A stretch of DNA of 64,000 nt. Source: Nitrospira japonica (lineage in GTDB: Bacteria; Nitrospirota; Thermodesulfovibrionia; Thermodesulfovibrionales; SM23-35). The stretch is taken from contig DYFC01000034.1 of assembly GCA_020725385.1 (NCBI GenBank), positions 32,001 through 96,000 on the forward strand, read 5' to 3'. This document shows, piece by piece, positions 2,783-62,905 of the stretch. The notes beneath the pieces are model-generated. The model ran no database searches. It was not told where the DNA came from and was given only the letters and a program-made list of their open reading frames with translations. Within the stretch, counting starts at the first letter, position 1; the number at the start of each line of letters is the position of its first letter. Both the position numbers and the translations under genes were made by a program.

Positions 2783-2807
2783 ATTAATTATGAAGATGCT
2801 GGAAATT

Positions 2808-3896: not shown

Positions 3897-3899
3897 ATT

Positions 3900-5672: not shown

Positions 5673-5688
5673 TATTTTGACTGTAGCA

Positions 5689-6249
5689 TTATGAAAAGCT
5701 AACCTTTACAGGCTTTCTTTCGACCTCAGGAGACTCAAGTTCAAAGAATTCTTCCTGCTTGAAATTAAATGTGCCAGCAATTATATTCGAAGGAAATGAC
5801 TCTATAGTTATATTGAAATCCCTTACAACAGCATTATAATATCTTCTTGCATATTCAATATTGTCTTCAAGTTCTTTGAGCTGGGACTGCAATTGTAAAA
5901 AATTTGTATTAGCTTTCAAATCAGGATAGGCCTCAGCGAGAGCAAAAAGACTTTTTAAAGTAGATGTAAGCATATTTTCAGCTTTTGCCTTATCTGCTGG
6001 AGATGAAGCATTCATTGCCATGTTTCTTGCTTTTGTTACATTCTCAAAAGTTGTTTTTTCATGAGAAGCATATCCTTTAACTGTTTCTACAAGGTTCGGA
6101 ACAAGATCATATCTCTTTTTTAATTGAACATCTATATCAGACCATGAAGATTTAACAGTATTACGGAGTTTTATCAATTTGTTATATATTGCTACACCAT
6201 AAAACAAAACAAGTAAAACTACACCAGAAATAATAAGTAAAGCAATCAT
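5689..6249 (-). CDS. lemA: LemA family protein
   Basis: [29 protein letters not shown] and [16 protein letters not shown] motifs; ATG at 6249 follows a GGGGG SD-like sequence. Confidence 0.92.
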
Positions 6250-6601
6250 CTTTCCCCCTAAGTTATTGTATATAAGCAAATCTATAAATTAATTGGTCAT
6301 TATGACCGAGCCCGGTTATAGCTATATCAATATGGATTATAAACCTTCTAGGAATATTCTCGAGCTCGTTAACTTTTTCTTCTATTTCAGGCATATTGAT
6401 AACTCCTCATTAATTTCATATTCTACCATAAAAAAACAACTTATCTTACAAATAAGCTGTTTGAACAAAAATACAAATAAACATGTAATAGGGTATAGGA
6501 AGAGCAGAGACCAAAGAACTGTAAAGCGTAAGGCATGAACACGCAAACAGCTAAAGAGTTAACGTGGGCAAGTAATACTTGAATCTGGATACTTGATTTT
6601 T

Positions 6602-8782
6602 TTAGTGCGTCTTACGATTTCCTTTGACTTCGAATTTAACCGAGTCAAGAATGTTTTCATGTTTATCAATTAATTGAACTGTGTGTTTTCCTGAAACAGG
6701 TTTTATTATCAGCGGCATTTTTGTATTCATATTTGTGTTATGTCCATCAAATACCCATGATATTTCATCGCTTAATGGATTTGCTTCAATAATGATTTTC
6801 TGTATTTCATCTGGAATGTCAGGATCAAGAGTTATTATAGTGCCATCAGGAGGATAAACAATTTGCGGGATAAAGTGTTTTTCATTTAAAGAAATTATGT
6901 GTCTTGAACTTTCTTTAAATGACGGTTCTGTGCCTTTAATAAACCATTCCTCTATTTCTAAAAGATTGGTTGAATCGATGAATACAGGCTTCTTTACTAT
7001 GCCATCAGGAGGTTTAATTTCTTCATCAATATTATCCTTATAGAGATAATTCATTATAGAAAGCCAAATAGGAGCAGCTCCTGTTATTCCTGTTACATTC
7101 CACATTGCCTCACCTGAAAAATTACCAACCCATACGCCTACTGTATATTTATTTGTATAACCAATGCACCAGTTGTCTCTCATATCTTTGCTTGTGCCTG
7201 TTTTTACCGAACTCCGGAATTTTGTATTCAAAGGGTTTTCTAAACTAAATGTATAAACTCTTGCCTCTCTGTCAGAAAGTATATCAGATATTATAAAAGC
7301 AGCCTCTGGTGAGAATACCCGAAATTTAGTATGTAAAACATCTTTATTTTGCAACCTTAAATTACTATATATGCCTCCATTTGCGAGCATTCGGTAAGCA
7401 TTAACAAGTTCATATAATGTAACATCAGCCGAGCCAAGAGCTAAAGAATGGCCGTAATAATCTGCATTTCTCAGATTTTTAAACCCCGATTCTTTAAGTT
7501 TCAGGACAAAATTTTCTATTCCAATCAGCGATAATGTTCTTACAGCAGGAACGTTTAATGATGAGGCAAGAGCAGTTCTTAAAGTAACCAGACCTTTAAA
7601 ATCATTTTCATAATTTTGTGGTTTATATATCCCATATTCTGTTGAAATATCAACAGGACTATCCGGGATAATTGATGCGGCAGTCAGCAAATGTTTATCT
7701 ATGCTTAGTGCGTATAGAAACGGTTTCAGGGTTGAACCTGCCTGTCTTTTTGCTCTTACACCGTCAACATATGGAGCAACCGAGCCTTTCCCGATGCTTC
7801 CAACATAAGCCAGTATATCGCCAGATTTATTTTCAACAACAATAGCTGCTCCATCATTCACATTCCTTGATTTAAGAGAAGAAATATGTTCTTCTAAAGT
7901 TTCGGAAACAAAACGCTGAATATCATAATCCAGAGTGGTAGAAATGGACTCTGTTCCAAAATAGGTAGGATTAATATTATTGTCATTCCTGTTTAAGAGA
8001 ATATGTGCTACATGCGGAGCAAGATTTTCTTTTTGTCTTACATAATATTTTCTATTGAATGTTTCTTTTATCTTTTCTTCAATTTTTTCTGGTTCAACGA
8101 CAGGCGTAAGGGATTGATTTAATAAATTAGCTCTATTAATAATTTTATCTATTTCCGCATTTGGTGAACGAATAAGTACAGCAAGAATAATTGATTCAAC
8201 GCTATTCAAACCCGATGGTTCTTTATTAAAAAGACATCTTGATGCAGCGGCAATTCCCTGCAACTCTCCTCTATATGTAACAAGATTTAGATAGGCTTCA
8301 AGTATTTCATCTTTTGACCAGATTTTCTCAATTTCAAGTGCTTCTTTCATCTGTCTCCATTTCTGTAAAACTGATCTGCCATTCTGCGCCGGTTTTAATT
8401 CTTCATTAAGAAGAGAAACAAGTTGCATTGTAATAGTGCTTGCCCCTCTTTTTGTTTTACCAGTAATATTTTTGATTAAGGTAGAAATAACAGAAAGCCA
8501 GTCAACACCGTAATGGCTGTAGAACCTTTTGTCTTCTGAATAAATAACAGCTTCTATCAGAGCTGGAGAGATGTCTTTTAAAGAAATCCATTCAAGTTTT
8601 CTTATATCGGGATTAAACCGCAATTCATGAATGATTTTCCCATTTCTGTCAAAAAGAAGTGCATCGGATGTAACATAAGAGTTTTTTACCTCCTGAAAAG
8701 AAGGCAAGGCATAAACATCAGAAACTACTAAAAGTATAAATAAGATAAGAAATTTATTTAAAATGAAAAATTTTTTTTTCAT
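6602..8782 (-). CDS. pbpC: Penicillin-binding protein 1C
   Basis: Transglycosylase motifs EDKRFY and GASTITMQL; transpeptidase motifs GSTLKPF, SLN, KTGTS; PBP1C-type C-terminal domain. Confidence 0.88.
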   Translation of the reverse strand: MKKKFFILNKFLILFILLVVSDVYALPSFQEVKNSYVTSDALLFDRNGKIIHELRFNPDIRKLEWISLKDISPALIEAVIYSEDKRFYSHYGVDWLSVISTLIKNITGKTKRGASTITMQLVSLLNEELKPAQNGRSVLQKWRQMKEALEIEKIWSKDEILEAYLNLVTYRGELQGIAAASRCLFNKEPSGLNSVESIILAVLIRSPNAEIDKIINRANLLNQSLTPVVEPEKIEEKIKETFNRKYYVRQKENLAPHVAHILLNRNDNNINPTYFGTESISTTLDYDIQRFVSETLEEHISSLKSRNVNDGAAIVVENKSGDILAYVGSIGKGSVAPYVDGVRAKRQAGSTLKPFLYALSIDKHLLTAASIIPDSPVDISTEYGIYKPQNYENDFKGLVTLRTALASSLNVPAVRTLSLIGIENFVLKLKESGFKNLRNADYYGHSLALGSADVTLYELVNAYRMLANGGIYSNLRLQNKDVLHTKFRVFSPEAAFIISDILSDREARVYTFSLENPLNTKFRSSVKTGTSKDMRDNWCIGYTNKYTVGVWVGNFSGEAMWNVTGITGAAPIWLSIMNYLYKDNIDEEIKPPDGIVKKPVFIDSTNLLEIEEWFIKGTEPSFKESSRHIISLNEKHFIPQIVYPPDGTIITLDPDIPDEIQKIIIEANPLSDEISWVFDGHNTNMNTKMPLIIKPVSGKHTVQLIDKHENILDSVKFEVKGNRKTH

Positions 8783-8803: not shown

Positions 8804-10231
8804 TTAAGTTATTAATTTTCTCGTGTCCCAGAATTTCCATTTTAGGTAGTCATTAATGCCTTTAGCTGCTTTTCTGCCTGCACCCATCGCAAGAATTACT
8901 GTTGCAGCGCCTGTAACAATATCACCTCCTGCAAATATGCCGGGTTTTGAAGTCATTCCTGTTTCATGGTCAGCGATTATATAATTTTTCTTGTTAAGAG
9001 CAAGATCTGGTATTGTGCTGGTTAGCAATGTATTCGACCTTGTTCCTATAGCAGGTATTGCAACATCTATATCAAGCTTAAACTCGCTTCCTTTTATTGG
9101 TACAGGTTTCCTCCTTCCAGAAGCATCAGGCTCGCCAAGTTCCATTTTTATACATTCAACAGCACAAACATTTCCTTTGCCATCATCAATGAATTTTAAT
9201 GGAGCAGTGAGAAACATGAATTCAATTCCTTCTTCTTTTGCGTGATGTATTTCTGCTTTCCTTGCAGGCATTTCTTCTTCAGAGCGACGGTAAATGAGAT
9301 ATACTTTTTCCGAGCCAAGCCTTAAAGCAACTCTTGCAGCATCCATTGCAACATTGCCGCCTCCAAATACAGCTACATTTTTTCCTTTTTTAATAGGTGT
9401 ATCATATTCGGGAAAAAGATAAGCTTTCATAAGATTTGCTCTTGTAAGAAATTCATTCGCAGAATAAATTCCATTTAAGTTTTCACCCGGAATTCCAAGA
9501 AAAACAGGCAGTCCCGCGCCTGCCCCAATATAACATGCATCATAACCCTGTTTATTCATGAGGTCATCTATAGTAAAAAGTTTCCCTATTACCGAATTAA
9601 GTCTTATCTCAACTCCGAGCTTTTTTATATATTCAACTTCTTTTTCAACTATAACCTTTGGCAATCTGAATTCCGGTATCCCGTAAATAAGGACTCCCCC
9701 GGGTTTGTGGAGTGCTTCAAACAATGTAACCCGATGTCCTTCTTTTATAAGATCTGCTGCGCATGAAAGTCCTCCGGGTCCGGAGCCGATTACAGCAACT
9801 TTTCTTCCTGTTGATTTAGGTTTTTCCGGTATTTGTATTTCACCGCTTTCACGTTCAAAATCAGCGACAAATCTTTCAAGATTACCAATTGCAACTGGCT
9901 CTCCTTTTTTTCCAAGAATACATCTTGATTCGCACTGTATTTCTTGAGGACAAACTCTTCCACATACAGCAGGCATTGCATTTTCTTCTTTTATTTTCCA
10001 TGCTGCTTCTATAAATTTTCCTTGTTTAATTAATTTAATAAATGCAGGTATATCAATCGATACAGGGCATCCTTCCCTGCATGTAGGTTTTGCACAATTT
10101 AAACAACGGGAAGCTTCTTCAACAGCTTCTTTAGGAGAATAACCAAAAGGCACTTCATCAAAATTTCTTGCTCTTATTATAGGGTCCTGTTCTCTCATCC
10201 TGATTCTGCTTTTTTGTTTCTTTTCTTCCAT
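8804..10231 (-). CDS. nfnB: NfnB/SudA-like large subunit of NADH-dependent ferredoxin:NADP+ oxidoreductase (GltD-like)
   Basis: EASRCLNC..C..GCP, CGRVCPQE.QCE, GSGPGGL, YGIPEFRLPK, GGGNVAMD, AGGDIVTGAATVILAMGAGR; overlaps the small subunit gene. Confidence 0.88.
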   Translation of the reverse strand: MEEKKQKSRIRMREQDPIIRARNFDEVPFGYSPKEAVEEASRCLNCAKPTCREGCPVSIDIPAFIKLIKQGKFIEAAWKIKEENAMPAVCGRVCPQEIQCESRCILGKKGEPVAIGNLERFVADFERESGEIQIPEKPKSTGRKVAVIGSGPGGLSCAADLIKEGHRVTLFEALHKPGGVLIYGIPEFRLPKVIVEKEVEYIKKLGVEIRLNSVIGKLFTIDDLMNKQGYDACYIGAGAGLPVFLGIPGENLNGIYSANEFLTRANLMKAYLFPEYDTPIKKGKNVAVFGGGNVAMDAARVALRLGSEKVYLIYRRSEEEMPARKAEIHHAKEEGIEFMFLTAPLKFIDDGKGNVCAVECIKMELGEPDASGRRKPVPIKGSEFKLDIDVAIPAIGTRSNTLLTSTIPDLALNKKNYIIADHETGMTSKPGIFAGGDIVTGAATVILAMGAGRKAAKGINDYLKWKFWDTRKLIT

Positions 10232-11061
10232 TATTTCACCCCTGCTTTATAGTGTTCCATGGCAATTTTTTCTTCATCAATATACATTCTTTGCCTTGAC
10301 ATTAAGAGATTGAAATCAACCTTATGTCCATCGAATTCAGGTCCATCAACACATGCAAATTTTGTTTCACCGCCGACTTCAACCCTGCATGCTCCACACA
10401 TTCCTGTTGCATCAACCATTATGGAATTCAGACTGACAATAGTTTTAACATTATGTTTTTGAGTAGTAATGCATACAAATTTCATCATTATCGCAGGTCC
10501 AATTGCATAAACGAGTTTTACACTTTTATCTTCATGCAAAATTTCATCAACAGGCACGGTAACAACAGCTTTTCTTCCGTAAGAACCATCATCGGTTACA
10601 ACTATCAATTCATCCGATACACTTCTCATTTTGTCTTCCCAGAAAATGAGTTCTTTCATTCTTGCTCCAATTATAGATATTACAGTATTGCCTGCTTCTT
10701 TTAATGCACGTGCAATAGGATAAACAGGTGCGATTCCAACACCGCCTCCAACACAAATAACTTTGCCAAAATTTTCAATATGCGAAGGAATTCCGAGAGG
10801 ACCTATAACATCTGTAATATAGTCACCTTCGTTTAATGTAGAAAGCTCATGGGTAGTTTTACCGATTTTTTGGAAAACAGTTGTAATAGTTCCTTTTTCT
10901 CTGTCAAAGTCTGCTATTGTAAGGGGAATTCTTTCTCCTTTTTCATGAATGCGAAGCACAAAAAAATTGCCTGCCTTTGCTTTTTGTGCTATTTCTTTTG
11001 CATCAATTACAAATAGAACTACAGCATCAGACAAGATCTGTTTTTCGAGGATTTTGAACAT
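10231..11061 (-). CDS. nfnA: NfnA/SudB-like small subunit (PyrK-like FAD/NAD-binding, [2Fe-2S])
   Basis: GERIPLTIAD, GGGVGIAP, MVDATGMCGACRV..ACVDGPEFDGH (Asp-ligated 2Fe-2S motif). Confidence 0.88.
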   Translation of the reverse strand: MFKILEKQILSDAVVLFVIDAKEIAQKAKAGNFFVLRIHEKGERIPLTIADFDREKGTITTVFQKIGKTTHELSTLNEGDYITDVIGPLGIPSHIENFGKVICVGGGVGIAPVYPIARALKEAGNTVISIIGARMKELIFWEDKMRSVSDELIVVTDDGSYGRKAVVTVPVDEILHEDKSVKLVYAIGPAIMMKFVCITTQKHNVKTIVSLNSIMVDATGMCGACRVEVGGETKFACVDGPEFDGHKVDFNLLMSRQRMYIDEEKIAMEHYKAGVK

Positions 11062-11096
11062 TAAAAACTCCTTTCTAATACGGCGGTGCCGGGATG

Positions 11097-11152
11097 AACT
11101 TAAGATCTAAAACTCAAAATTCAAGATTCAAAACTCAAAACTCAAAATTCAA
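11097..11152. repeat. Degenerate heptanucleotide tandem repeat (AAYTCAA)x8
   Basis: aacttaa gatctaa aactcaa aattcaa gattcaa aactcaa aactcaa aattcaa. Confidence 0.8.
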
Positions 11153-11321
11153 GAATGGGTTTCTATAGCTAATGCTTTCATAGTATAAACTCTCAATAAA
11201 TTTTTTGGAATAATTTTTTATACAAATTAAAAATAACCTCTATTTATGATGATTTTATAATTGAAAATAATAAGCTTATCAAGCTATTAAAAAAATTATT
11301 TTACATTAATCAATTTTTTAC

Positions 11322-11351
11322 TTGACAAGACCGAGCACTTTCAAGTATAAC
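11322..11351 (+). promoter_or_regulatory. sigma70 promoter of the nuo operon
   Basis: TTGACA-N18-TATAAC, 10 nt upstream of the nuoA ATG. Confidence 0.6.
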
Positions 11352-11361
11352 ATACTCGCTT

Positions 11362-11733
11362 ATGCCTGGAACGTATTTGCCAACAGAATATTTACCGGTT
11401 TTGATTTTTATACTCGTTGCAGAGGCGTTTGGTTTTGGCGCACTGTTAATAGGAGTAGTATTCAGACCTAAAAAGCCTTACCTTGAAAAATTACTGCCTT
11501 ATGAATCAGGTATTGATCCCAAAGGAGAACCTCGCACAAGATTTGCAATTCGTTTTTATATAATAGCAATGCTTTTTGTGGTTTTTGATGTTGAAGCAAT
11601 TTTTATTTATCCATGGGCAATTGTATTTGATAAGATCGGCATATTTGCATTTATTGAAATGGTTATCTTTATTCTGATACTTTTAGTCGGATACATCTAT
11701 GCCTGGAAAAAAGAAGCTTTTGTCTGGGATTAA
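11362..11733 (+). CDS. nuoA: NADH-quinone oxidoreductase subunit A
   Basis: PYESGIDP, FYIIAMLFVVFDVEAIFIYPWA. Confidence 0.95.
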   Translation: MPGTYLPTEYLPVLIFILVAEAFGFGALLIGVVFRPKKPYLEKLLPYESGIDPKGEPRTRFAIRFYIIAMLFVVFDVEAIFIYPWAIVFDKIGIFAFIEMVIFILILLVGYIYAWKKEAFVWD

Positions 11734-11758
11734 AATACCTAACAGGGGGTTATTGTAG

Positions 11759-12277
11759 ATGCTGGATACATCGAGTTTAGGCCTGATTCAAGTGCAGCAG
11801 GATGTTAAGATACTGCCTCCAAATGCTATTATTACGACTTTTGACAAAATTATTAACTGGGGCAGGCTTTCATCTATATGGCCTATGACATTCGGACTTG
11901 CTTGATGTGCTATTGAGATGATGGCCGTGGGCGCATCACATTATGATTTTGACAGGTTCGGTGTTATTTTTAGAGCTTCACCCCGACAGGCAGATTGCAT
12001 TATAATCGCAGGCACAGTTACTAAGAAAATGGCTCCAATTGTAAGAAGAGTTTATGATCAAATGCCTGAGCCGAGATATGTTATCTCTGTTGGAAGTTGT
12101 GCATGCACCGGAGGGATTTTCAAAACATACAGCACAGTACAGGGTTGCGATACTTTCCTGCCGGTTGATGTTTTTATCCCTGGTTGCCCTCCAAGACCCG
12201 AGACATTTCTTGAAGGTGTAATGTTGCTTCAGGAAAAAATAAGAAAAGAACAGGCGAGGTGGAGTCCATGGCGGTAA
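11759..12277 (+). CDS. nuoB: NADH-quinone oxidoreductase subunit B, probable selenoprotein (TGA at 11903-11905 read as Sec49)
   Basis: The frame from ATG 11759 reads ...[43 protein letters not shown]. The TGA occupies the first Cys of the conserved CC motif and is followed by a hairpin. Confidence 0.88.
11903..11941 (+). promoter_or_regulatory. Candidate bacterial SECIS element of nuoB
   Basis: TGATG-GCC-[GTG]-GGC-G-CATCA stem-loop; the loop G lies 22 nt after the UGA. Confidence 0.6.
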
Positions 12278-12849
12278 CCGAAGTTGTAGCAGGTTTGTAT
12301 CCTGCCGGAATAGAGCAGGAAAAAATAGCTGAAATGATAAAAGAAAAATTTCCCGAGCAGGTAATTGATGTTACCAATTTCAGGGATCAGGTTGCTGTTA
12401 TTATAAAGAAAAATCAGAGTTTTTCAATCCTTAAATATCTCCATGATGAACCAACTCTTAGTTTTGACCATCTTAGAGATCTAACTGCTGTTGACTGGTC
12501 TAATAAAAAAGAAGTAAGATTTGAAGTCGTTTATAATCTTTTATCAACAAAATACCGTCATATACTAAGAATAAAAGTACAGGTTCCGGAAAATGACGTG
12601 AAAATTGCTTCGGTTGTGCCGATATGGGCAGGAGCAAATTGGCATGAACGTGAATGTTTTGATATGTTCGGAATTCAATTTACAGGTCATCCCGATTTAA
12701 GAAGAATTTTAATGCCAGAGGACTGGGAAGGTTATCCATTGAGAAAAGATTATCCTTTAAAAGGATATGAAGGAGATAAAGACTGGCCTGGATTTATTCA
12801 AGTTATTAAAAGATCTCAAGAACTGAAGGAGTTTGAGTGGCATGATTAA
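12268..12849 (+). CDS. nuoC: NADH-quinone oxidoreductase subunit C
   Basis: [47 protein letters not shown]. Confidence 0.95.
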
Positions 12850-14311
12850 GATGCAGGAGCCTGAAAAGATTTTTGAGACGAGAGAACTGAATGTTAATAT
12901 GGGGCCACAGCATCCGGCTACCCATGGGGTATTAAGAGTTGTATTGGACCTTGATGGTGAAACTATTGTCAGACTTACTCCATACGTTGGTTATCTGCAT
13001 CGTGGTATAGAAAAGCTCGGTGAAAGTCTGAGTTATTTTCAGGCATTGCCTTTAACAGACAGGATGGACTATGTCTCAGCAATGTCCAATAATATAGGTT
13101 ATTGCGTAGCTGTTGAAAAACTTTATGGAATAGAACCTCCGCCAAGAGCAAAATTCATAAGAACAATTGTTGGAGAGTTGTCAAGAATTTCAAATCATCT
13201 CTTATGGCTTGCAACACACGCTCTTGACATCGGCGCAATGACAGTCTTTCTTTATTGTTTCAGGGAAAGAGAATGGATACTTGAATTATTTGAGATGATA
13301 TGCGGTGCAAGACTTACCGTTACATATCCAAGAGTTGGTGGAGTAAGAAACGATATATCCAAAGAATTTATAGATCATCTCGTAAAATTCCTTGCAGAAT
13401 TTCCTTCAAGAATACTTGAATATGAAACATTAATTGATCAGAATAGAATCTGGCTTCAAAGGACTGTAGGTATTGGTGTTATCTCTGCTGAAGAAGCCAT
13501 TAACTGGGGAATGACAGGACCTACATTAAGAGGTTCTGGAATTCCGTATGATATTAGAAAATTTATGCCTTATGATGCCTATGATCAGGTTGAATTTGAA
13601 ATTCCTATAGGTACCGCAGGCGATACATATGATAGATACCGTTGCAGAATGCTTGAAATGAGGCAGTCTGTAAAAATAATCATACAATGTCTCGAGAAAC
13701 TTCCTGCCGGTCCTGTAATGGCTGATGCTCCAAAGTTTGTACTTCCTCCAAAAGACAAAATGTTAATAATCACACATCCTGTAAATGAAATTGCATATTT
13801 CATAGATGAAAAAGCATGTAAAGGATGTGGAATGTGTTTAAGAGCATGTCCTGCAAAAGCAATAACAGGTGAGAAAAAGAAACCGCATAAAATTGATCAG
13901 GCTTTATGTCTGCAATGTGCCACCTGTTTTGTTACATGTAAGTTCAAGGCTTTAAAAATAGTTCCGGGAGGAAAAGGACAGACAGAGGAGAAACTTGTAG
14001 AGCTTGCAGCGCAGCCTGTTTCGGATGAACTAAAACAGGCTCAAGAAGCACTCGTTGCTCATTTTGATTTCATAAAGAAAGGACCCAAGGTTCCTGAAGG
14101 TGAAGTATATGTAGCAACAGAAGTCCCGAAAGGAGAGCTTGGATTCTATTTTGTCAGTGATGGTACGCATAAACCATATAGAATGCGTGTTAGGTCGCCA
14201 TCCTTTATTCATGCAGGATGTCTTGAAAGACTCTGTAAAGGGCATTTGGTTGCGGATGTTATAGCTAATATTGGAACGATTGATATCGTTCTTGGAGAGT
14301 GTGACAGGTAG
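12842..14311 (+). CDS. nuoD: NADH-quinone oxidoreductase subunit D with an internal 2x[4Fe-4S] ferredoxin domain
   Basis: [52 protein letters not shown]; insert contains [12 protein letters not shown] and [12 protein letters not shown]. Confidence 0.93.
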
Positions 14312-14314
14312 AAT

Positions 14315-15373
14315 ATGAATATGGCAAATGTAATAAGTCCTACAACTGTTGATGCTTTAATTAAATTTGGCATTGATGTAGCTATTATTCTTCTTAAAAT
14401 AGTAATAGTTCTTGCGGTTGGCTTACTTCATGTAGCATATGCAACATATTTCGAACGTAAAGTAATAGGTCATATGCAGGTAAGACTTGGACCAATGAGG
14501 GTTGGACCTCACGGTCTTCTTCAGCCTTTTGCTGATGGTATAAAACTTTTCTTTAAAGAAGACATAATCCCTGCTCAGGCTGATAAAGTAGTCTTTTATA
14601 TTGCTCCTATTATTTTTATGGCTGCTGCAATGGTTAATTTGTCCGTAATTCCATTTGATGCAAATTTTGTAATTGCTGATATTAATGTTGGATTGCTTTT
14701 CATCTTTGCGATGGCTGGAGTTGGTGTTTATGGAATATTTATATCAGGATGGGCATCAAATTCAAAATATGCATTCATGGGAGGACTTAGATCATCTGCA
14801 CAGGTTATAAGTTATGAAATTGCGATGGGTCTCAGCCTTGTTGGTGTTATGATGATGGCGGGTTCTTTAAATCTCTCGGATATAATCAGGGCACAAGGTG
14901 AATCAATATTTGGCATGTACGCTATCCCCCAGTTTATAGGATTTATAGTATTTGTAATTGCTGCAGTTGCAGAAACAAACAGAACACCGTTTGATTTGCC
15001 CGAAGCCGAAAGCGAATTAGTAGCAGGTTATTTTACAGAATATAGTAGTTTCAGATTTGCTCTATTCTTTCTTGGCGAATATATAGCAATGATTCTTATG
15101 GCGTCATTATGCACAATATGTTTCCTCGGTGGATGGACATTGCCATGGTATGTTTTGAAAATTTTCCCGTTCCTTAGTTATGTGCCGGGAGTTGTATGGT
15201 TTGTGTTGAAAGTTTATGCATTTTTCTTCTTCTATTACTGGATAAGAGCAACAGTACCAAGATACAGATACGACCAGTTTATGGCTATAGGCTGGAAGAT
15301 TTTAATTCCGGTTGCGATAGGAAATATATTATTAACAGGTCTTGTGAAAATTATTTTGAAAGAGGTATTGTAG
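14315..15373 (+). CDS. nuoH: NADH-quinone oxidoreductase subunit H
   Basis: ERKVIGHMQVRLGP, GLLQPFADGIKL, AETNRTPFDLPEAESELVAGY. Confidence 0.96.
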   Translation: MNMANVISPTTVDALIKFGIDVAIILLKIVIVLAVGLLHVAYATYFERKVIGHMQVRLGPMRVGPHGLLQPFADGIKLFFKEDIIPAQADKVVFYIAPIIFMAAAMVNLSVIPFDANFVIADINVGLLFIFAMAGVGVYGIFISGWASNSKYAFMGGLRSSAQVISYEIAMGLSLVGVMMMAGSLNLSDIIRAQGESIFGMYAIPQFIGFIVFVIAAVAETNRTPFDLPEAESELVAGYFTEYSSFRFALFFLGEYIAMILMASLCTICFLGGWTLPWYVLKIFPFLSYVPGVVWFVLKVYAFFFFYYWIRATVPRYRYDQFMAIGWKILIPVAIGNILLTGLVKIILKEVL

Positions 15374-15374
15374 C

Positions 15375-15899
15375 GTGACATTCAAACATTTCATTAAAAC
15401 AATTACCTTTATAGAAATATTGAAAGGTATGGCTTTAACATTAAGAAGGATGTTTTCTAAGGCAGTTACAATACAATATCCCGATGAAAGAAGAAAGATT
15501 GCGCCTGGTTTTAGAGGGCAACATGCTCTTTCAAAACGTGGCGGGAAAGCAAAATGTGTTGGTTGCGGATTATGCGCTACAATATGCCCTTCGCAATGTA
15601 TAAGCATAACGAGAGAAAAAGGTCAGGTTACAAAATATCAAATAGAGCTTCTAAGATGTATATATTGTGGATTTTGTGTTGAAGCTTGCCCGTATGGAGC
15701 TATCTCTCTAACTGAGAATTATGAATATTCTTCTTACAACAAACAGGATTTAATGATGACAAAGGAAAAATTATTATCAAACTGGGATAAATATATGCCC
15801 GGTACAAAAGGCGAAGAATATTACAAAAAATTCTGGAGGCCTATGTCAGAGGATTTCGGTACACCTCCCGGACAGGCAATGTATGGAGGTAAAAGATAA
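15375..15899 (+). CDS. nuoI: NADH-quinone oxidoreductase subunit I
   Basis: TIQYPDE, FRGQH, CVGCGLCATICP and CIYCGFCVEACP. Confidence 0.95.
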   Translation: MTFKHFIKTITFIEILKGMALTLRRMFSKAVTIQYPDERRKIAPGFRGQHALSKRGGKAKCVGCGLCATICPSQCISITREKGQVTKYQIELLRCIYCGFCVEACPYGAISLTENYEYSSYNKQDLMMTKEKLLSNWDKYMPGTKGEEYYKKFWRPMSEDFGTPPGQAMYGGKR

Positions 15900-16411
15900 T
15901 GGTATCCATAGGCTTTTTTATATATTTTGCTTTTGCAATTGTAGTTCTTTCATTGCTTGTAGTAACAAGAAGGAATCCTGTTCACAGTGTTTTATGGATG
16001 CTTCTTTTGTTTTTCCATATAGCAGGAGTATATTTGTTCCTTAACGCTGAATTTATGGCTGCAATACAGGTCATTGTATATGCAGGAGGTATCCTTGTTT
16101 TATTCTTATTTGTTGTTCTTTTAATGAACTTACGAGAAGAGTTATCAATAGGTAAATACACCACATTTGGCCCGACAGGTTTTACTTTCGCTTTAGGACT
16201 TTTTGTAGCTGTTTCTATGGCACTGAGTTCTTTTATAGCTGCGCCTCCCGGCAAATATTCAATAGATTTAATCAAGCAGGAGACACATGTAAAAGCACTC
16301 GGTAAATTGTTATATACAGAGTTTATTTATCCTTTTGAAATTGCTTCTTTGATTCTTTTAGTTGCAATGATTGGAGCAATAGTCCTTGCGAAAAGGAGGC
16401 TTAAGAGTTAA
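15899..16411 (+). CDS. nuoJ: NADH-quinone oxidoreductase subunit J
   Basis: NPVHS, LNAEFMAAIQVIVYAGGILVLFLFVVLL, PFEIASLILLVAMIGAI. Confidence 0.95.
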   Translation: MVSIGFFIYFAFAIVVLSLLVVTRRNPVHSVLWMLLLFFHIAGVYLFLNAEFMAAIQVIVYAGGILVLFLFVVLLMNLREELSIGKYTTFGPTGFTFALGLFVAVSMALSSFIAAPPGKYSIDLIKQETHVKALGKLLYTEFIYPFEIASLILLVAMIGAIVLAKRRLKS

Positions 16412-16412
16412 G

Positions 16413-16718
16413 ATGGCGGTTCCATTAAGCTGGTACATGTTATTGAGTCTTGCTGTATTTTCAATCGGTGTGTTTGGTTTTCTTTCAAGAAGAAACATTA
16501 TTATTATGTTAATGTCTATAGAATTAATGTTAAACGGAGTAAATATTAATTTAATCGCTCTCAGTCATTATATTCAGGATTTAAGGGGCCAGATACTTGC
16601 GTTTTTTGTGATAGCGGTTGCAGCAGCCGAGGCGGCGATTGGACTTGCGATTGTGATTGCGATGTTCAGGAACAGGGCAACTGCGCATGTTGATGAAATC
16701 AAAGAGATGCAGGGTTGA
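16413..16718 (+). CDS. nuoK: NADH-quinone oxidoreductase subunit K
   Basis: RRNIIIMLMSIELMLNGVN, AVAAAEAAIGLA; ATG at 16413. Confidence 0.95.
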   Translation: MAVPLSWYMLLSLAVFSIGVFGFLSRRNIIIMLMSIELMLNGVNINLIALSHYIQDLRGQILAFFVIAVAAAEAAIGLAIVIAMFRNRATAHVDEIKEMQG

Positions 16719-16747
16719 TTAACAAATGAGTATAGAGGAATAAGAAT

Positions 16748-18832
16748 ATGGCAAATATGGAATTACAATGGTATCATGTTTTAATACCTTTTCTTCCGCT
16801 AACCGGTTTTATAATTAATATTCTACTTGGCAAAGAAGTAACCAGATATAAAGCTCACTGGTTTGCTGTTTCTTCTGTTTTTGGTTCATGGCTATGTTCG
16901 CTCGCTACATTACAGGATGTTCTTGGAGGCAAGATAATCGATGCCGATCTTTATACATGGATACTTTCAGGCACATTTAAGGTAGGGGTGGGATTTTTAA
17001 TTGATCCTTTAACTGCAGTTATGCTCATTGTTGTTACAACCTGTGCAACTTTGATTCATATTTATGCAATAGGTTATATGCATGGTGACACAGGTTATTA
17101 CAGATTTTTCTCATATCTGAATCTTTTCACATTCTGTATGCTTATGCTTGTAATGGGCAATAACTTCCTCCAGCTTTATTTCGGATGGGAAGGTGTAGGA
17201 CTTTGCTCTTATTTCTTGATTGGATATTATTTCAATAAAAAATCTGCTGCAGATGCTGGAAAGAAAGCCTTCATAGTCAATAGATTCGGCGACTTTGGTT
17301 TTGGAATCGGTGTTTTTATGGTCTTTTTAACATTTGGAACTTTACACTATGCTGATGTTTTTGCGAATGTTAGCAGTATTGCCGGTAAAACAGTCAATTT
17401 TCTTGGTTTAAATGTTGACCTTCCAACATTGATTGCACTATTACTTTTTTGCGGTGCGGTTGGAAAATCAGCCCAGATTCCATTACATGTCTGGCTTCCA
17501 GATGCAATGGAAGGTCCCACACCTGTCAGCGCATTAATCCATGCTGCCACAATGGTTACAGCGGGTGTATTTCTCGTTGCAAGATGCAATCCTATTTTCA
17601 ACCTTTCTGAAATTGCAATGAATACAGTCGCAATTATCGGGGCGTTGACAATGTTCTTTGCAGCAACAATCGCTATAACGCAAAATGATATAAAAAGAAT
17701 TATAGCTTTTTCTACATGTAGTCACTTAGGTTATATGTTTCTTGCCTGTGGAGTTGGAGCTTATGCAGCAGGAATATTCCATCTTTACACCCATGCATTT
17801 TTCAAAGCACTTCTATTTCTTGCAGCAGGTAGTGTAATTCATGCAGTTCATACAAATAATATTCAGTTTATGGGTGGATTGAAAAAATATATGCCTATTA
17901 CATACGCGGTTTTCGTTATTGCTGGGTTAAGTGCCGGCGGATTTCCCGGTCTTTCCGGATTCTTCAGCAAGGATGAGATTATATGGTCTGCATATGCTTC
18001 CCATTCAAGCGTAGGTAAATTTGTATGGATACTCGCACTTGCCGGAGCATTCTTTACACCTTTCTATACATTTAGATTAATATTCAGGACTTTCTTCGGA
18101 GAATATCGTGGTGGACTCGAGGCAGAAGAAGCAGCGACTCATGCACATAGCAGTTCACATGGTTCGGGGCATAGTTCACATGGTGCCGGTCATGATTCTC
18201 ACGGTTCAGGACACGACCCGCACGGACATGATTCATCTCATGGTTCCGGACATGATTCACACGGAGGACATGGACATGGTCCCCATGAATCACCTTATAT
18301 TATGACAGTGCCCTTGATGTTTCTTGCTGTTGGAGCAATAGCTGCCGGCTGGGTTGGCATTCCGCCTTTACTCGGGGGAGGAAATCATTTTGCTCATTTC
18401 TTACAGCCTGTTGTAGGCCACCCGGAATTTCATGGCACTCATGCTGAAGAATGGGGTGTAATGATATTATCAACCACAATTGCACTAATTGGCCTGGGAC
18501 TTGCAGCATTTATGTATTTAAGAAAAACCGATTTACCCGAGAGAATTTCAAAACAATTCTCATTGTTATATAAAATTTTATATAACAAATATTATGTGGA
18601 TGAATTTTATAATCTTACTATTGTGCAGCCGACTCTTAAACTTGCAAATAAAGTGCTTGTAGGATTTACAGATGCCAAGATAATTGAAGGTATAGTTAAT
18701 GGTGTGCCTAACTTAATAGGAATATTCAGCCAGAAACTTAGAAGGCTTCAAACAGGAATAGCGCATCATTATGCAATATTTATGGCAGCAGGTGCAGTTT
18801 TTATAGTTGCACTGGTAATTTTATTGAGTTAA
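16748..18832 (+). CDS. nuoL: NADH-quinone oxidoreductase subunit L (His/Gly/Ser-rich loop)
   Basis: GWEGVGLCSY, KAFIVNRFGD, GKSAQIPLHVWLPDAMEGPTPVSALIHAATMVTAGV. Confidence 0.96.
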   Translation: MANMELQWYHVLIPFLPLTGFIINILLGKEVTRYKAHWFAVSSVFGSWLCSLATLQDVLGGKIIDADLYTWILSGTFKVGVGFLIDPLTAVMLIVVTTCATLIHIYAIGYMHGDTGYYRFFSYLNLFTFCMLMLVMGNNFLQLYFGWEGVGLCSYFLIGYYFNKKSAADAGKKAFIVNRFGDFGFGIGVFMVFLTFGTLHYADVFANVSSIAGKTVNFLGLNVDLPTLIALLLFCGAVGKSAQIPLHVWLPDAMEGPTPVSALIHAATMVTAGVFLVARCNPIFNLSEIAMNTVAIIGALTMFFAATIAITQNDIKRIIAFSTCSHLGYMFLACGVGAYAAGIFHLYTHAFFKALLFLAAGSVIHAVHTNNIQFMGGLKKYMPITYAVFVIAGLSAGGFPGLSGFFSKDEIIWSAYASHSSVGKFVWILALAGAFFTPFYTFRLIFRTFFGEYRGGLEAEEAATHAHSSSHGSGHSSHGAGHDSHGSGHDPHGHDSSHGSGHDSHGGHGHGPHESPYIMTVPLMFLAVGAIAAGWVGIPPLLGGGNHFAHFLQPVVGHPEFHGTHAEEWGVMILSTTIALIGLGLAAFMYLRKTDLPERISKQFSLLYKILYNKYYVDEFYNLTIVQPTLKLANKVLVGFTDAKIIEGIVNGVPNLIGIFSQKLRRLQTGIAHHYAIFMAAGAVFIVALVILLS

Positions 18833-18859
18833 AAAGGATAAAACTCTTAGAGGAGAACA

Positions 18860-20401
18860 ATGGAACAGGTAATAATGAATAATCTGAATTACCCCATACT
18901 TAGCACCGTTATATTTCTACCAGTTTTGGGCGCGCTTCTAATTCTCATTAACAGAAGATCATGGGAGACCCTGACAAAATGGATAGCATTGGGAACGAGC
19001 ATTTTAACTTTTATAGCTTCAATTCCTTTATTTACTCATTTTGACAAGACCACCCATAAGATGCAATTTGTAGAGAGATTTTCATGGATTCCCAACTGGA
19101 ATATTTATTATTTTCTCGGAGTTGATGGCATAAGCGTTCTATTTGTTCTTCTTTCGACACTATGCGCTATTCTTTGTGTATTAATATCATGGACAGCAGT
19201 TACTAATAAAATTAAAGAGTTTTATATAGCTATTTTATTAACAACATCTTTTATGATCGGTGTCTTCTGCTCCCTGGATTTTTTCCTTTTTTATCTTTTC
19301 TGGGAAGCGATGCTTATACCTATGTTCCTGATCATCGGTGTCTGGGGCGGACCAAATCGTATATATGCTGCAATTAAGTTCTTCCTTTATACATTAGTAG
19401 GAAGTGTCCTGATGCTTGTTGGAATAATCGTTCTTTATCTTTATTCAGGTAAAACATTTGATATTCTTACAATGATGACAAAGAATTATCCTTATACAAT
19501 GCAAATATGGCTTTTCTGGGCATTTTTTGCAGCTTTTGCTGTTAAGGTGCCAATGTGGCCAGTGCATACATGGTTGCCCGATGCACATACCGAAGCTCCA
19601 ACAGCAGGTTCGGTTATTCTTGCTGCTGTCCTTATTAAAATGGGTGCTTATGGTTTCCTGAGATTTTCATTGCCCCTGCTTCCCGAAGCATCAAAAGCAA
19701 TGACACCTGTTATGTTAACGTTATCAGTTATTGCAATTATTTATGGAGCTATCATATGTTTAGGCCAGACAGACCTGAAAAGACTTATTGCATACAGTTC
19801 GGTAAGTCACATGGGATTTGTAACACTCGGTATTTTTGCACTAAATACACAGGGAGTTGAAGGCGGAATACTACAAATGCTCAATCATGGTGTAGTAACA
19901 GGAGCTCTCTTTTTATCTGTAGGTATTGTTTATGAAAGAACACATACAAGATTAATTGCTGATTATGGTGGTCTTGCTACCGAGATGCCAATATATTCAT
20001 CATTTTTTATGGTGTTTACCTTAGCAGCAATTGGGCTTCCTGCAACAAATGGTTTTATAGGTGAATTCCTGATCCTTTTGGGTGGATTCGCTGCAAATAA
20101 ATGGGCTGGAGTCCTTGCTTGCACTGGAATAATCATAGGTGCAGGTTATATGCTCTGGCTATATCAAAGAGTATTTTTTATGGAAGTAAATCCCAAGCTT
20201 CATGGACTGGTTGATATGAATGTAAGGGAAACTATAGCATTATTGCCCATGTTAATACTCGTATTCTGGATAGGTGTTTATCCTAATTCATTCCTTAGCT
20301 TTATGCATACTTCTGTGCAACATCTTTTAGAGAGAGTTAATAGTGGCGGGATTGCCCAGGAAGCACAGATAGCTAAAAATATTATGGAGGTAATCAGATG
20401 A
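18860..20401 (+). CDS. nuoM: NADH-quinone oxidoreductase subunit M
   Basis: FWEAMLIPM, KVPMWPVHTWLPDAHTEAPTAGS, DLKRLIAYSSVSHMG. Confidence 0.96.
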   Translation: MEQVIMNNLNYPILSTVIFLPVLGALLILINRRSWETLTKWIALGTSILTFIASIPLFTHFDKTTHKMQFVERFSWIPNWNIYYFLGVDGISVLFVLLSTLCAILCVLISWTAVTNKIKEFYIAILLTTSFMIGVFCSLDFFLFYLFWEAMLIPMFLIIGVWGGPNRIYAAIKFFLYTLVGSVLMLVGIIVLYLYSGKTFDILTMMTKNYPYTMQIWLFWAFFAAFAVKVPMWPVHTWLPDAHTEAPTAGSVILAAVLIKMGAYGFLRFSLPLLPEASKAMTPVMLTLSVIAIIYGAIICLGQTDLKRLIAYSSVSHMGFVTLGIFALNTQGVEGGILQMLNHGVVTGALFLSVGIVYERTHTRLIADYGGLATEMPIYSSFFMVFTLAAIGLPATNGFIGEFLILLGGFAANKWAGVLACTGIIIGAGYMLWLYQRVFFMEVNPKLHGLVDMNVRETIALLPMLILVFWIGVYPNSFLSFMHTSVQHLLERVNSGGIAQEAQIAKNIMEVIR

Positions 20402-21825
20402 ATTTCCCCCTTCCTGATCTTAATCCTGTAATGCCTGAAATACTGATGACTGCATTTGCATTAATTGTGCTTTTACTTGATTTGATTGTGAAAAAGAAAG
20501 AAGCTGTAGCTGTAATTAGCATTGCAGGCACAGCAATAGTATCACTAAGTCTTCTAAATACATCAGGCTCTACATTCGGGGGAATGTATATAGCTGACGG
20601 ATATAGCACATTCTTTAAAATCATATTCTTTATAAATGTCATATTAACGATATTGATTTCAATTAAATATATTGCTGTAGAAAGAGTTAATTATGGTGAA
20701 TATTATAGTTTAATACTTTTTTCGACAGTTGGTATGATGATAATGGCCTCAGCTTCTGACCTGATAACGCTTTACTTAGGTCTTGAATTAATGGCATTAA
20801 GCACTTATGTATTAGCCGGATTTATAAGACATAATCTTAAATCGACTGAATCTGCACTTAAATATTTTCTTCTGGGAGCTTTTTCATCAGGATTCTTGCT
20901 CTATGGTATTTCTATTGTATATGGACTTACAGGTACAACGGATATAAAGGCAATAGCAACATTCATAACAGAAAGAGGATTAAGCGGAAATTTATCGCTT
21001 CTTCTTGCGATTGGAATGCTTACTGTTGCGTTTGGATTTAAGATTGCTGCGGCTCCATTTCATATGTGGGCTCCCGATGTATATGAAGGAGCTCCAACTT
21101 CAATAACAGCATTCATGTCAGTTGGCCCAAAAGCAGCTGGTTTTGCTGTTATTGGAAGAGTTTTTATGATAGCTTTTGCAGCTGTAAAAGCAGACTGGGC
21201 AACTATCTTGATCCCGATATCAATTCTTACAATGGCAGTTGGTAACATTGTAGCATTATCACAGACGAACATAAAGAGAATGCTCGCATATTCTTCTATA
21301 GCCCATGCTGGATATGCATTGCTTGGTATAATTACAGCCAACTCAGAGGGTATATCAAGCATGATGAATTATCTCTTTATCTATGCTTTCATGAATATCG
21401 GAGCATTTGCAGTTATCATAATGCTTAGAAGCGAAGGCATAAAAGGTGAAGATTTAAGCGACTATGAAGGGCTTTCAAAAACACATCCTATGGCAGCGGC
21501 TTTAATGCTGATTTTTATGTTTTCATTGACCGGAATCCCACCAACAGCAGGTTTTATTGGTAAATTATATATTTTCATGGCTGCAATTAATGCAGGATAT
21601 ACATGGCTTGTTATTATAGCTGTCATATTTAGCGCTATTTCAGCATACTTTTATTTACGAGTTGTAATGTATATGTATATGAGGGATCCAAAAACTGAAC
21701 TACCTTTAACTACATCCTTTACAAATGGATTAGCCCTTGCAGTTACAACAGCAGCAGTATTGATCATAGGTGTTTTCCCGACAATGCTTGTGGAATTTGC
21801 CCGTGCTGCATTGAAGAGTTTTTAG
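20398..21825 (+). CDS. nuoN: NADH-quinone oxidoreductase subunit N
   Basis: ESALKYFLLG, FKIAAAPFHMWAPDVYEGAP, KRMLAYSSIAHAGY. Confidence 0.96.
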   Translation: MNFPLPDLNPVMPEILMTAFALIVLLLDLIVKKKEAVAVISIAGTAIVSLSLLNTSGSTFGGMYIADGYSTFFKIIFFINVILTILISIKYIAVERVNYGEYYSLILFSTVGMMIMASASDLITLYLGLELMALSTYVLAGFIRHNLKSTESALKYFLLGAFSSGFLLYGISIVYGLTGTTDIKAIATFITERGLSGNLSLLLAIGMLTVAFGFKIAAAPFHMWAPDVYEGAPTSITAFMSVGPKAAGFAVIGRVFMIAFAAVKADWATILIPISILTMAVGNIVALSQTNIKRMLAYSSIAHAGYALLGIITANSEGISSMMNYLFIYAFMNIGAFAVIIMLRSEGIKGEDLSDYEGLSKTHPMAAALMLIFMFSLTGIPPTAGFIGKLYIFMAAINAGYTWLVIIAVIFSAISAYFYLRVVMYMYMRDPKTELPLTTSFTNGLALAVTTAAVLIIGVFPTMLVEFARAALKSF

Positions 21826-58969: not shown

Positions 58970-59286
58970 GAGAAGAAGGTGGATATGGCGCAGGAAGTAT
59001 AATACTGTCCTTTTTGCTTGGAGGTGTAGTAGGCGCTGGAGTTGCATTACTTCTCGCACCTCAATCAGGCAGGGAAACAAGACAAAAAATAATGCAAATG
59101 ACAGAAGATGTTAAAGGAAAAGCCATGGATTATGTTGGTGATGTTAAAGAAAAAATTACAGGCAGCATTGATAAAGGTAAGGAATTCTTTGATGAAAAGA
59201 AATCAATTATTACATCAGCAATAGAAGCGGGTAAAGAAGCTTACGAAAGAGAAAAAGAGAGATTGTCCCGAGAAGAAAATGCATGA
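58966..59286 (+). CDS. YtxH domain-containing protein
   Basis: FLLGGVVGAGVALLLAPQSGRETR. Confidence 0.85.
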   Translation: MREEGGYGAGSIILSFLLGGVVGAGVALLLAPQSGRETRQKIMQMTEDVKGKAMDYVGDVKEKITGSIDKGKEFFDEKKSIITSAIEAGKEAYEREKERLSREENA

Positions 59287-59623
59287 AGTTGGAATAGCTC
59301 AAGGGATTCTTGATATTGCACTTAATACATGTAAGAATAATAATTACACAAAAGTTGATTCAATAAAAGTTAGAATTGGTAAAGCTGCAGGAGTATTGCC
59401 TGATTCTTTAATTTTTGCTTTTGAGACAATGAAAATTGGCACAGAAGCTGAAAATGCCACTCTTATAATTGAAGAAGTTCCTGTAAGCGGTGTTTGTAAT
59501 AGTTGTAAAGAAAATTTTTCTGTTGATGATCCTTATATAATACAATGCCCAAATTGTGGAAACATATCATTACGTATCGATACGGGTCGTGAACTAAATG
59601 TATATGAGCTGGAGGTTTCTTAA
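59279..59623 (+). CDS. hypA: Hydrogenase maturation nickel metallochaperone
   Basis: N-terminal MHE, CNSC and CPNC, GREL. Confidence 0.93.
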   Translation: MHEVGIAQGILDIALNTCKNNNYTKVDSIKVRIGKAAGVLPDSLIFAFETMKIGTEAENATLIIEEVPVSGVCNSCKENFSVDDPYIIQCPNCGNISLRIDTGRELNVYELEVS

Positions 59624-59626
59624 GTT

Positions 59627-60280: not shown

Positions 60281-60306
60281 AGTCTGGAGCTAAGAATATA
60301 CTTTTT

Positions 60307-60340
60307 AAAGGGTTCAGATTTTTCAAACTGAACCCTTTTT
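60307..60340 (+). terminator. Rho-independent terminator after hypB
   Basis: aaaGGGTTCAG-loop-CTGAACCC-TTTTT. Confidence 0.75.
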
Positions 60341-62858: not shown

Positions 62859-62905
62859 AAAGAAGAACTAATTTGAAATAGATTAATCAGAGGAGGGAGT
62901 TGTAA

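Follow-up and report, generated by a model that had tools for sequence, protein, structure and literature searches.

Gene content of the locus

The stretch of DNA described here (the window; 64,000 nucleotides of contig DYFC01000034.1) originates from a Thermodesulfovibrionales metagenome-assembled genome (MAG; 2.46 Mb, 71 contigs, 96.58% complete) and carries an operon for a respiratory complex I without the NuoEFG head, located back to back with the genes of a putative NfnAB transhydrogenase. Genes were called from open reading frames (ORFs) and Pfam matches, and selected proteins were also compared with NCBIfam models and PDB chains. Two divergent transcription units were identified, minus-strand nfnAB (8804-11061) and plus-strand nuoABCDHIJKLMN (11362-21825; Table 1). 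All eleven core nuo genes are contiguous and each has a Pfam match; nuoB is an open frame only if one TGA is read through. The stop codon of nuoD (TAG, 14309-14311) is separated from the ATG of nuoH (14315) by a gap of 3 nt (AAT), and nothing can therefore be encoded between the two genes. ORFs, Pfam matches and coordinates confirm both the gene order with its 3-nt gap and the divergent nfnAB across a 300-bp intergenic region, as an earlier sequence-only reading of this DNA had described them.

Contigs from other public sequencing runs cover the stretch in part, with other parts uncovered. The nuoD-nuoH junction is spanned by contigs from three such runs belonging to three studies (X6, X2 and X7), and the whole nfnA-nuoA spacer by one contig of another run (X1). 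As independent contigs bridge these junctions, the gene order is not an artefact of this assembly, and that explanation was rejected.

NuoD matched the model TIGR01962 with 554.7 bits (cut-off 459) and the FpoD model with 359 bits, below the 600-bit cut-off of the latter. Among PDB chains it matches complex I of mitochondria and bacteria best (451-386 bits), with NdhH next at 331 bits. Residues H31 and Y80 of NuoD are invariant in a NuoD alignment of the relatives (alignment A3) and align with T. thermophilus Nqo4 at positions 38 and 87 (query 10-308 against 2fug_4 17-315), which form the quinone site. An identity as a group-4 hydrogenase was rejected, given the score above cut-off to the NuoD model and the presence of these residues. 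NuoB possesses all four N2 ligand positions.

The genes nfnA and nfnB are adjacent and overlap by 1 nt at 10231. NfnB scored 580.5 bits against TIGR01316 and NfnA 419.5 bits against NF004862, both above cut-off. NfnB matched T. maritima 4ylf_B over residues 9-468 (E 2.6e-188, 630 bits) and 5jca_L (E 6.7e-158, 530 bits), NfnA matched 5jca_S (E 5.3e-108, 364 bits) and 4ylf_A (E 8.9e-87, 294 bits), and the matches to P. furiosus 5vj7 were weaker (485 and 187 bits). Judged by subunit domains, adjacency and full-length similarity to characterised NfnAB, the gene pair is an NfnAB orthologue. Both proteins are full-length and ordinary, without an extra docking domain, and have the same two-subunit architecture as NfnAB of Thermotoga maritima (4YLF) and NfnI of Pyrococcus furiosus (5JCA). 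The proteins themselves are no different from these; what sets the pair apart is genomic, its genes being arranged divergently, and in a conserved manner, with a nuo operon that lacks the head. The genome has one nfnAB, and pntAB was not found in it.

Table 1. Features of the nfnAB-nuo locus (positions in the window)
Feature	Position	Strand	Basis
nfnB (GltD-like large subunit, 2x[4Fe-4S] + FAD; 475 aa)	8804-10231	-	Pfam Fer4_20 + Pyr_redox_2
nfnA (small subunit, FAD/NAD-binding, DHODB-type Fe-S; 276 aa)	10231-11061	-	Pfam DHODB_Fe-S_bind + NAD_binding_1
Divergent spacer, 300 bp	11062-11361	.	Sequence
Heptamer tandem repeat AAAAYTC/AAGATTC	11109-11154	+	Inside spacer
nuo promoter-like element TTGACA, 18 nt, TATAAC	11322-11351	+	Read from sequence + conservation
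nuoA	11362-11733	+	PF00507, E 8.7e-37
nuoB	11759-12277	+	PF01058; one UGA read through
In-frame TGA in nuoB, first Cys of tandem-Cys motif FGLA-U-CAIEMM	11903-11905	+	Translation with TGA=U
nuoC	12259-12849	+	PF00329, E 1.7e-49
nuoD, 492 aa	12833-14311	+	PF00346, E 2.2e-115
NuoD ferredoxin-like insert, 2x[4Fe-4S], about aa 311-404	13763-14044	+	Fer4 families aa 322-373
nuoH	14315-15373	+	PF00146, E 3e-127
nuoI (2x[4Fe-4S])	15375-15899	+	Fer4 families
nuoJ	15899-16411	+	PF00499
nuoK	16386-16718	+	PF00420
nuoL	16748-18832	+	PF00361 + PF00662 + PF01010
nuoM	18860-20401	+	PF00361
nuoN	20398-21825	+	PF00361

NuoEFG, the NuoD insert and the divergent neighbour in relatives

Operon-type NuoE, NuoF and NuoG of the two nearest EFG-containing relatives, whose NuoF proteins share 87% identity with each other, gave matches in the host genome of 29-32%, 44-46% and 29-36%, respectively. 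Core subunits compared with the same two relatives gave 66% for NuoD, 65-67% for NuoH, 70-72% for NuoB, 61-64% for NuoL and 54-56% for NuoI. No orthologue of operon-type NuoEFG was identified elsewhere in the 96.58%-complete genome, an absence that is not absolute at that completeness. Since NuoE, NuoF and NuoG of the relatives match only long paralogues (29-46%), the canonical N module is, by these comparisons, lost and not moved.

The NuoF FMN domain (PF01512) has five matches in the genome, one of which is RnfC while four are NuoF-like. The NuoE/NuoF-like sets are found on contigs C23 (156 + 538 + 866 aa), C27 (152 + 592 aa and an FdhA-like gene, adjoining FTHFS), C13 (162 + 899 + 675 aa, adjoining a POR subunit) and C3, running on into C11 (adjoining cooS). 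The four NuoF-like proteins measure 477+ to 899 aa, whereas the operon-type NuoF of relatives has a length of 419-422 aa, and the four sets look like soluble modules of the HydB/Bfu type, a family named in PMC9304861 (excerpt). The view that no nuoEFG exists elsewhere in the genome thus stands for operon-type orthologues and fails for NuoE/NuoF-like genes in general. The 675-aa protein of C13 lacks a molybdopterin dinucleotide-binding domain and is NuoG-like, not like formate dehydrogenase (FDH). It adjoins, together with a POR gamma subunit, the 899-aa NuoF-like protein (C13 6710-9409), an unusual Bfu-type module with many extra Fer4 domains. The FdhA-like gene of C27 (molybdopterin subunit; 4847-7564, minus strand) has a TGA within the motif CARYUHSSSV that breaks its frame, and very likely encodes a selenocysteine formate dehydrogenase.

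In NuoD, approximately 94 residues are inserted after about residue 310 and contain two complete CxxCxxCxxxC(P) motifs. All eight cysteines (CxxCxxCxxxCP and CxxCxxCxxxC) are conserved in 32/32 insert-bearing rows of alignment A3 and in 0/4 insert-less rows; the nuoD of L121, which has an in-frame stop, was left out of this alignment. Together with the Fer4 matches at aa 322-373, this conservation establishes that the ferredoxin insert of the sequence-only reading is real. In the predicted NuoD model, which is poor as a whole (mean pLDDT, the predicted local distance difference test, of 62.7), the insert reaches a pLDDT of 71-87 and is predicted to fold confidently on its own. Thirty-six further loci match NuoD in the insert only (45-76% identity). 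The insert-like match was recovered in 35 of these 36, and in 33 of the 35 it lies directly after a NuoF-like core on the same strand, a position that identifies the nearest homologues of the insert as the C-terminal 2x[4Fe-4S] domains of HydB/Bfu-type NuoF-like subunits. The best-matching paralogue within the host genome is found at the C-terminus of the NuoF-like protein encoded on C27 (54.5% over 55 residues).

A tree of NuoD and NuoH (63 rows, quick method) placed all insert-bearing rows in one clade (support 99) within an EFG-less clade of 36 rows (support 100), the basal members of which, L065 and L066, are without the insert. In a second tree (58 rows, insert columns removed) the EFG state changes at least five times, and a single group of all EFG-less rows was rejected by the approximately unbiased test (p-AU 0.0015; the grouping was defined after the first tree was known), indicating repeated loss of NuoEFG in the order. 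For the lineage of the window, these trees place the loss of NuoEFG, with nfnAB nearby, before the gain of the insert.

The neighbourhood of nuo operons was compared at 71 loci, consisting of the window, 40 loci from the genomes of 39 relatives and 30 of the first 41 loci of a further set, the other 11 being contigs already included. Close relatives in a named collection were MAGs labelled Nitrospirota, Thermodesulfovibrionales or Thermodesulfovibrionia; G017 was left out (short contigs), G034 was sampled at two places, and 8 of the 71 loci belong to other phyla or are too distant. Insert-bearing EFG-less operons were identified in 37 species, with nuoD directly followed by nuoH in 36/36 loci that reach nuoH. 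The upstream side can be assessed in 34 of the 37 species (L057, L094 and L096 end too early). It holds a directly divergent nfnAB in 26, a directly divergent pntAB in four (L062, L089, L091 and L105; by Pfam) and a NuoE/NuoF-type module in two (L046 and L100); in L100, nfnAB lies beyond this module, at 5.2 kb. In the module of L046 (G001, a genome of the same genus) a NuoF-like flavoprotein and a GltD/NfnB-like domain are joined in one protein of 1062 aa (12090-15278). Genes of NuoE-like and NuoG/FdhA-like type flank it, and the arrangement resembles the Stn/Nfn-Bfu type.

Sixteen loci of the order have EFG-containing operons. Neither nfnAB nor pntAB was present in the 4.9-6.3 kb inspected upstream of the 13 assessable ones, and three of the operons have NuoE/F-like genes 1.1-3.3 kb upstream. 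The divergent synteny seen in the window is a conserved trait of the insert-bearing clade, kept in 26/34 species against 0/13 EFG-containing relatives. The EFG-containing genomes G030, G025 and G037 keep NfnB (55-63% identity) at unlinked sites, and G026 has no NfnB match at E 1e-40. G010, with pntAB as neighbour, has no NfnB orthologue (best match 43%).

Among EFG-less operons outside the insert-bearing clade, the insert-less L065 has nfnAB 2.8 kb off, beyond a histidine kinase and a response regulator. L081 has pntAB 159 bp off; its PntA is 47% identical to that of L062, which suggests that this pntA was acquired separately from the pntAB of the clade. The nuo operon of L083 (G034:C1) became EFG-less independently of the insert clade, and at 1917-5392, 94 bp upstream of it and co-directional, lies a 2-oxoacid:ferredoxin oxidoreductase operon (porG-porD-porA-porB). 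The nuo gene order of L084 is scrambled. The insert-less EFG-less L066 and L070 are not assessable, and L110 is a 2.5-kb fragment. Between nuo and a divergent redox module, L065, L080 and L082, which belong to basal or sister lineages, have a two-component system (histidine kinase plus response regulator), one response regulator of L082 being fused to a NuoE-like domain. This system is absent at the sites of the insert-bearing clade.

NfnAB reversibly couples the oxidation of NADPH to the reduction of NAD+ and ferredoxin. PntAB, a membrane enzyme without iron-sulfur clusters, links transhydrogenation between NADH and NADPH to the proton gradient and makes no contact with ferredoxin. Because pntAB takes the place of nfnAB in four species of the clade and in L081, the link conserved at this site is transhydrogenation, that is NADH/NADPH balancing, and not delivery of ferredoxin by Nfn. 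The proposal that the complex is coupled to Nfn is accordingly upheld for the conserved neighbour and given up for ferredoxin hand-over by Nfn as such. In judging this link, more weight falls on the replacements (pntAB in one sub-clade or two, and in L081 on a separate occasion) than on the retained adjacency.

The control region between the divergent genes is short. Spacers of relatives measure 76-349 bp, 18 of the 25 measured being no longer than 126 bp, and in 22 of the 29 spacers measured beside nfnA or pntA the two divergent start codons are 76-126 bp apart. With start codons so close, the two divergent promoters must overlap or abut. The 31 spacers compared all contain AATTTTTTACTTGACAAG, approximately 12 variable bases and CTTTTMAGTATAAC, with the ATG about 10 nt after TATAAC, and the promoter-like element is kept in spacers beside pntA as well. 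In the window its hexamers lie at 11322-11327 (TTGACA) and 11346-11351 (TATAAC). A consensus promoter/terminator scan of 10950-11450 gave no match, the nuo element being passed over because its second hexamer ends in C. No Rex-type operator was seen in the spacer by eye, this inspection not being a systematic search. Only 10 nt separate the end of the -10-like hexamer from the ATG of nuoA, and a Shine-Dalgarno sequence is not apparent; transcripts of nuoA may be almost without a leader.

Electron donor and direction of the complex

The genome encodes dsrA, aprA, acsB, cooS, FTHFS and POR. With dsrA, aprA, acsB, cooS and FTHFS present, the host is, by its gene content, a dissimilatory sulfur (sulfate/sulfite-reducing) anaerobe that possesses the Wood-Ljungdahl pathway and a large number of enzymes linked to ferredoxin. 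A cluster of the rnf type was also identified; Pfam supports its RnfC, its RnfD and a poly-ferredoxin protein, the other members being assigned by ORF size and order only. The hydrogenase maturation genes hypA/B/F/D are located at 59279-63976 of the window. A second complex-I-like cluster on C60 (4271-11917) is a candidate group-4 membrane-bound hydrogenase. Its 531-aa large subunit is NuoC/D-fused and resembles that of NiFe hydrogenases, and it further encodes NuoB-like (257 aa) and NuoH-like proteins as well as antiporter-like subunits.

Gene content and order, cofactor motifs, NfnAB orthology, loss of NuoEFG and conservation of the neighbourhood, all of them read from sequence, point, with a confidence slightly above an even chance, to a ferredoxin-fed, menaquinone-reducing proton pump that is co-regulated with an enzyme balancing pyridine nucleotides and ferredoxin. 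From these features we infer an electron donor, a direction of flow, proton pumping and co-regulation, as follows. Reduced ferredoxin would serve as single-electron donor to the 11-subunit complex, entering via the extra 2x[4Fe-4S] domain of NuoD and/or the clusters of NuoI. Electrons would pass to N2 in NuoB and on to menaquinone at the conserved site of NuoD, and proton pumping would be driven through NuoH/L/M/N. Reduced ferredoxin would be supplied by CODH/ACS, POR, Bfu-type modules and NfnAB, while menaquinol would be consumed by the sulfate-reduction machinery. Soluble NfnAB, expressed from the same short control region, would balance NADPH, NADH and ferredoxin, a transhydrogenase being needed as the complex would no longer oxidise NADH. 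The arrangement of por and nuo in L083 supports, at the level of gene order, a ferredoxin donor in an independent headless lineage.

Several points weigh against this reading. As PntAB works without ferredoxin, the neighbour alone is no pointer to a ferredoxin donor. The adjacency of nfnAB appears to have essentially one origin, at the base of the clade, and to have been retained thereafter, so that 26 species are not 26 independent observations. Unrelated genes occupy the site in two of the 34 assessable species, L056 (yidD/yidC/mnmE) and L093 (a restriction-modification system and lpxK), and unrelated neighbours are also found in three other independently EFG-less operons (L108, L109 and L112). 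Finally, one of the four NuoE/NuoF-like sets could dock as a detached NADH module.

Operation in reverse is improbable, although it is the best of the alternatives. The proton-motive force would drive electrons from menaquinol to ferredoxin, and NfnAB or PntAB would make NADPH for Wood-Ljungdahl autotrophy. The usual physiological direction of NfnAB and PntAB is NADPH formation, so reversal would account for two unrelated transhydrogenases at one site, and acsB/cooS together with the hyp genes would fit growth on H2/CO2. The transfer is, however, some 350-430 mV uphill; the complex has the standard three antiporter-like subunits only, and about 4 H+ per 2 e- would be barely enough. Rnf, an alternative maker of reduced ferredoxin, is moreover present. 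A precedent in favour of reversal is the flow to ferredoxin via a modified complex I that has been proposed for Nitrospina NUO-2 (PMC3578206, excerpt).

A little less probable again is that a distant NuoE/NuoF(/G)-like set restores NADH oxidation, the nfnAB neighbourhood being inherited synteny without function. Four candidate sets exist, C13 encodes a NuoG-like protein of 675 aa, and the adjacency, essentially of one origin, was lost in L056 and L093. Against this, the NuoF-like proteins of the four sets, at 477+ to 899 aa compared with 419-422 aa, share only 44-46% identity with operon-type NuoF, and the sets adjoin FDH/FTHFS, CooS or POR genes, as is usual for soluble bifurcating enzymes. 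Neutral synteny would not be expected to have its site refilled by analogues, namely pntAB in the clade and the 47% identical pntA of L081.

A replacement head is doubtful and ranks lower still. Here NfnAB would dock on the NuoD insert, its part being taken by a Bfu-type NuoE/F module in some species, and form an NADPH-linked pump without free ferredoxin. Loss of EFG, proximity of nfnAB and the insert fall on one lineage, with nfnAB already near in the insert-less basal L065; the insert shares homology with the cluster domain found at the C-terminus of flavoprotein subunits of HydB type; and the NuoE/F-type modules at the site in 2/34 species include the 1062-aa fusion to a GltD/NfnB-like domain. 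Against docking, PntAB, which holds the site in four species of the clade, has no Fe-S clusters and cannot feed the chain, NfnA and NfnB carry no extra docking domain, and L065 has nfnAB near but no insert. The same low probability is given to a version in which the HydB/Bfu-type 2x[4Fe-4S] domain was copied into NuoD as a permanent socket, with NfnAB or a Bfu-type FDH plugging in as exchangeable heads; if true, this would amount to a proton pump driven by NADPH or formate that needs no free ferredoxin.

The ferredoxin-fed, menaquinone-reducing pump may also be set beside known relatives of complex I. In NDH-1, ferredoxin binding involves extra small subunits from separate genes (NdhS/V/O), whereas the only extra element found here is a domain fused inside NuoD. 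The Fpo of methanogens joins a complex I core to F420H2 or ferredoxin input through a dedicated subunit, FpoF. Cyanobacterial and chloroplast NDH-1 likewise has eleven core subunits and no N module. Ferredoxin is its donor (cited in PMC11238625, excerpt), and in the NuoE/F-substituted complex I of Campylobacterota replacement proteins for flavodoxin/ferredoxin input stand at the E/F position (PMC11238625, excerpt). Unlike in Fpo and the Campylobacterota complex, the E/F position is empty here (3-nt gap). Nitrospina gracilis NUO-2 resembles the present complex in its extra ferredoxin-type [4Fe-4S] clusters and its proposed quinol-ferredoxin link (PMC3578206, excerpt). It keeps modified NuoE/F/G, with the extra clusters in NuoF2/NuoG2 (PMC3578206, excerpt), whereas here E/F/G are absent and the clusters are in NuoD.

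Closer in gene order are Thermodesulfovibrio sp. N1 (PMC5165239, excerpt), which belongs to the same order and has two EFG-less nuo clusters, and Desulfitobacterium hafniense DCB-2 (PMC11238625, excerpt). Both have nuoABCDHIJKLMN without nuoEFG and, as described in these excerpts, a conserved Q module with a proposed menaquinone-reducing role and a non-NADH donor. The clusters of N1 adjoin genes for Psr/Psh-type molybdoenzymes (PMC5165239, excerpt). Unlike in N1 and DCB-2, as far as the excerpts go, the operon described here has the 2x[4Fe-4S] insert in NuoD, the UGA in nuoB and a divergent nfnAB, or pntAB in some species. 'Ca. Sulfobium' has been described with NuoA-N, NfnAB and Rnf (PMC5812927).

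In general, 11-subunit complexes are thought to accept ferredoxin, flavodoxin or F420H2 (PMC3144371; PMC11238625; excerpts). According to an excerpt of PMC11238625, no common donor protein has been found for the 11-subunit complex of anaerobes, which is maybe a docking platform for multiple partners. The clade bears on this donor question with a built-in ferredoxin-type domain of traceable origin in NuoD and with a conserved neighbour which, where it was exchanged, gave way to an analogous transhydrogenase. Sister lineages in which NuoEFG was kept or lost independently, one of them beside a 2-oxoacid:ferredoxin oxidoreductase operon, form a natural comparative series on which a change of complex I input and the rebalancing of NADH/NADPH after loss of the NADH module could be tested. 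Headless complex I is known already, also from the order Thermodesulfovibrionales (PMC5165239). What appears to be new is a transhydrogenase neighbour that is both conserved and replaceable, together with a 2x[4Fe-4S] insert in NuoD that is specific to the clade: the Nfn/Pnt-nuo pairing, its in-situ replacement by an analogue and the NuoD insert were not found in the literature searched (few subscription journals, no supplements).

The UGA codon of nuoB and other features

Translated with TGA as selenocysteine (Sec, U), nuoB forms one open frame of 172 residues to a stop. The TGA codon is reached by one contig of other runs (X6), near the end of that contig. At the same position, 14 of 61 nuoB genes have TGA and 47 have TGC or TGT. 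Alternation of cysteine and UGA at a ligand position is a classic selenoprotein signature. TGA is found in 8/36 insert-bearing, 6/17 EFG-containing and 0/8 insert-less EFG-less nuoB genes, and was rejected as a marker of headlessness, as it occurs in EFG-containing operons too. Of the Sec-ligated N2 that had been considered possible, the in-frame TGA at an N2 cysteine is thus real, but it bears no link to the headless state.

The genome encodes a tRNA-Sec (on C13) and, above cut-off, selA and two selB, and at least two of its genes carry an in-frame TGA at Sec-type positions. A selD was not found in this genome, where the best candidates are ThiL and HypE, nor in G005 (the nearest relative) or G024; it is present in G001, G015 and G011, itself with one in-frame TGA. 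The hairpin predicted downstream of the UGA has an energy no better than that of shuffled sequences (z = 1.06), and the mean fold energies of TGA rows (-14.0 kcal/mol) and Cys rows (-14.1 kcal/mol) are alike. A stem in which UGAUGYGC pairs with GCGCAUCA is common to the eight TGA rows of the clade and is also seen in some Cys rows.

The divergent spacer of the window also contains a heptamer tandem repeat, with three matches in a scan against 0.08 expected; the repeat is absent from the short spacers of relatives. Genome-wide, 29 matching 18-mers (three of them here) occur at roughly a dozen places on 10 contigs, the other sites being on C10, C26, C29, C31 (another site), C36, C47, C53, C55 and C62. 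In other runs the repeat site shows many loose contig ends and very high contig depth.

A 196-aa protein (window 5689-6279) matches the MamQ/LemA model in part and with a score below the cut-off, which is possibly notable as some Thermodesulfovibrionales relatives are magnetotactic.

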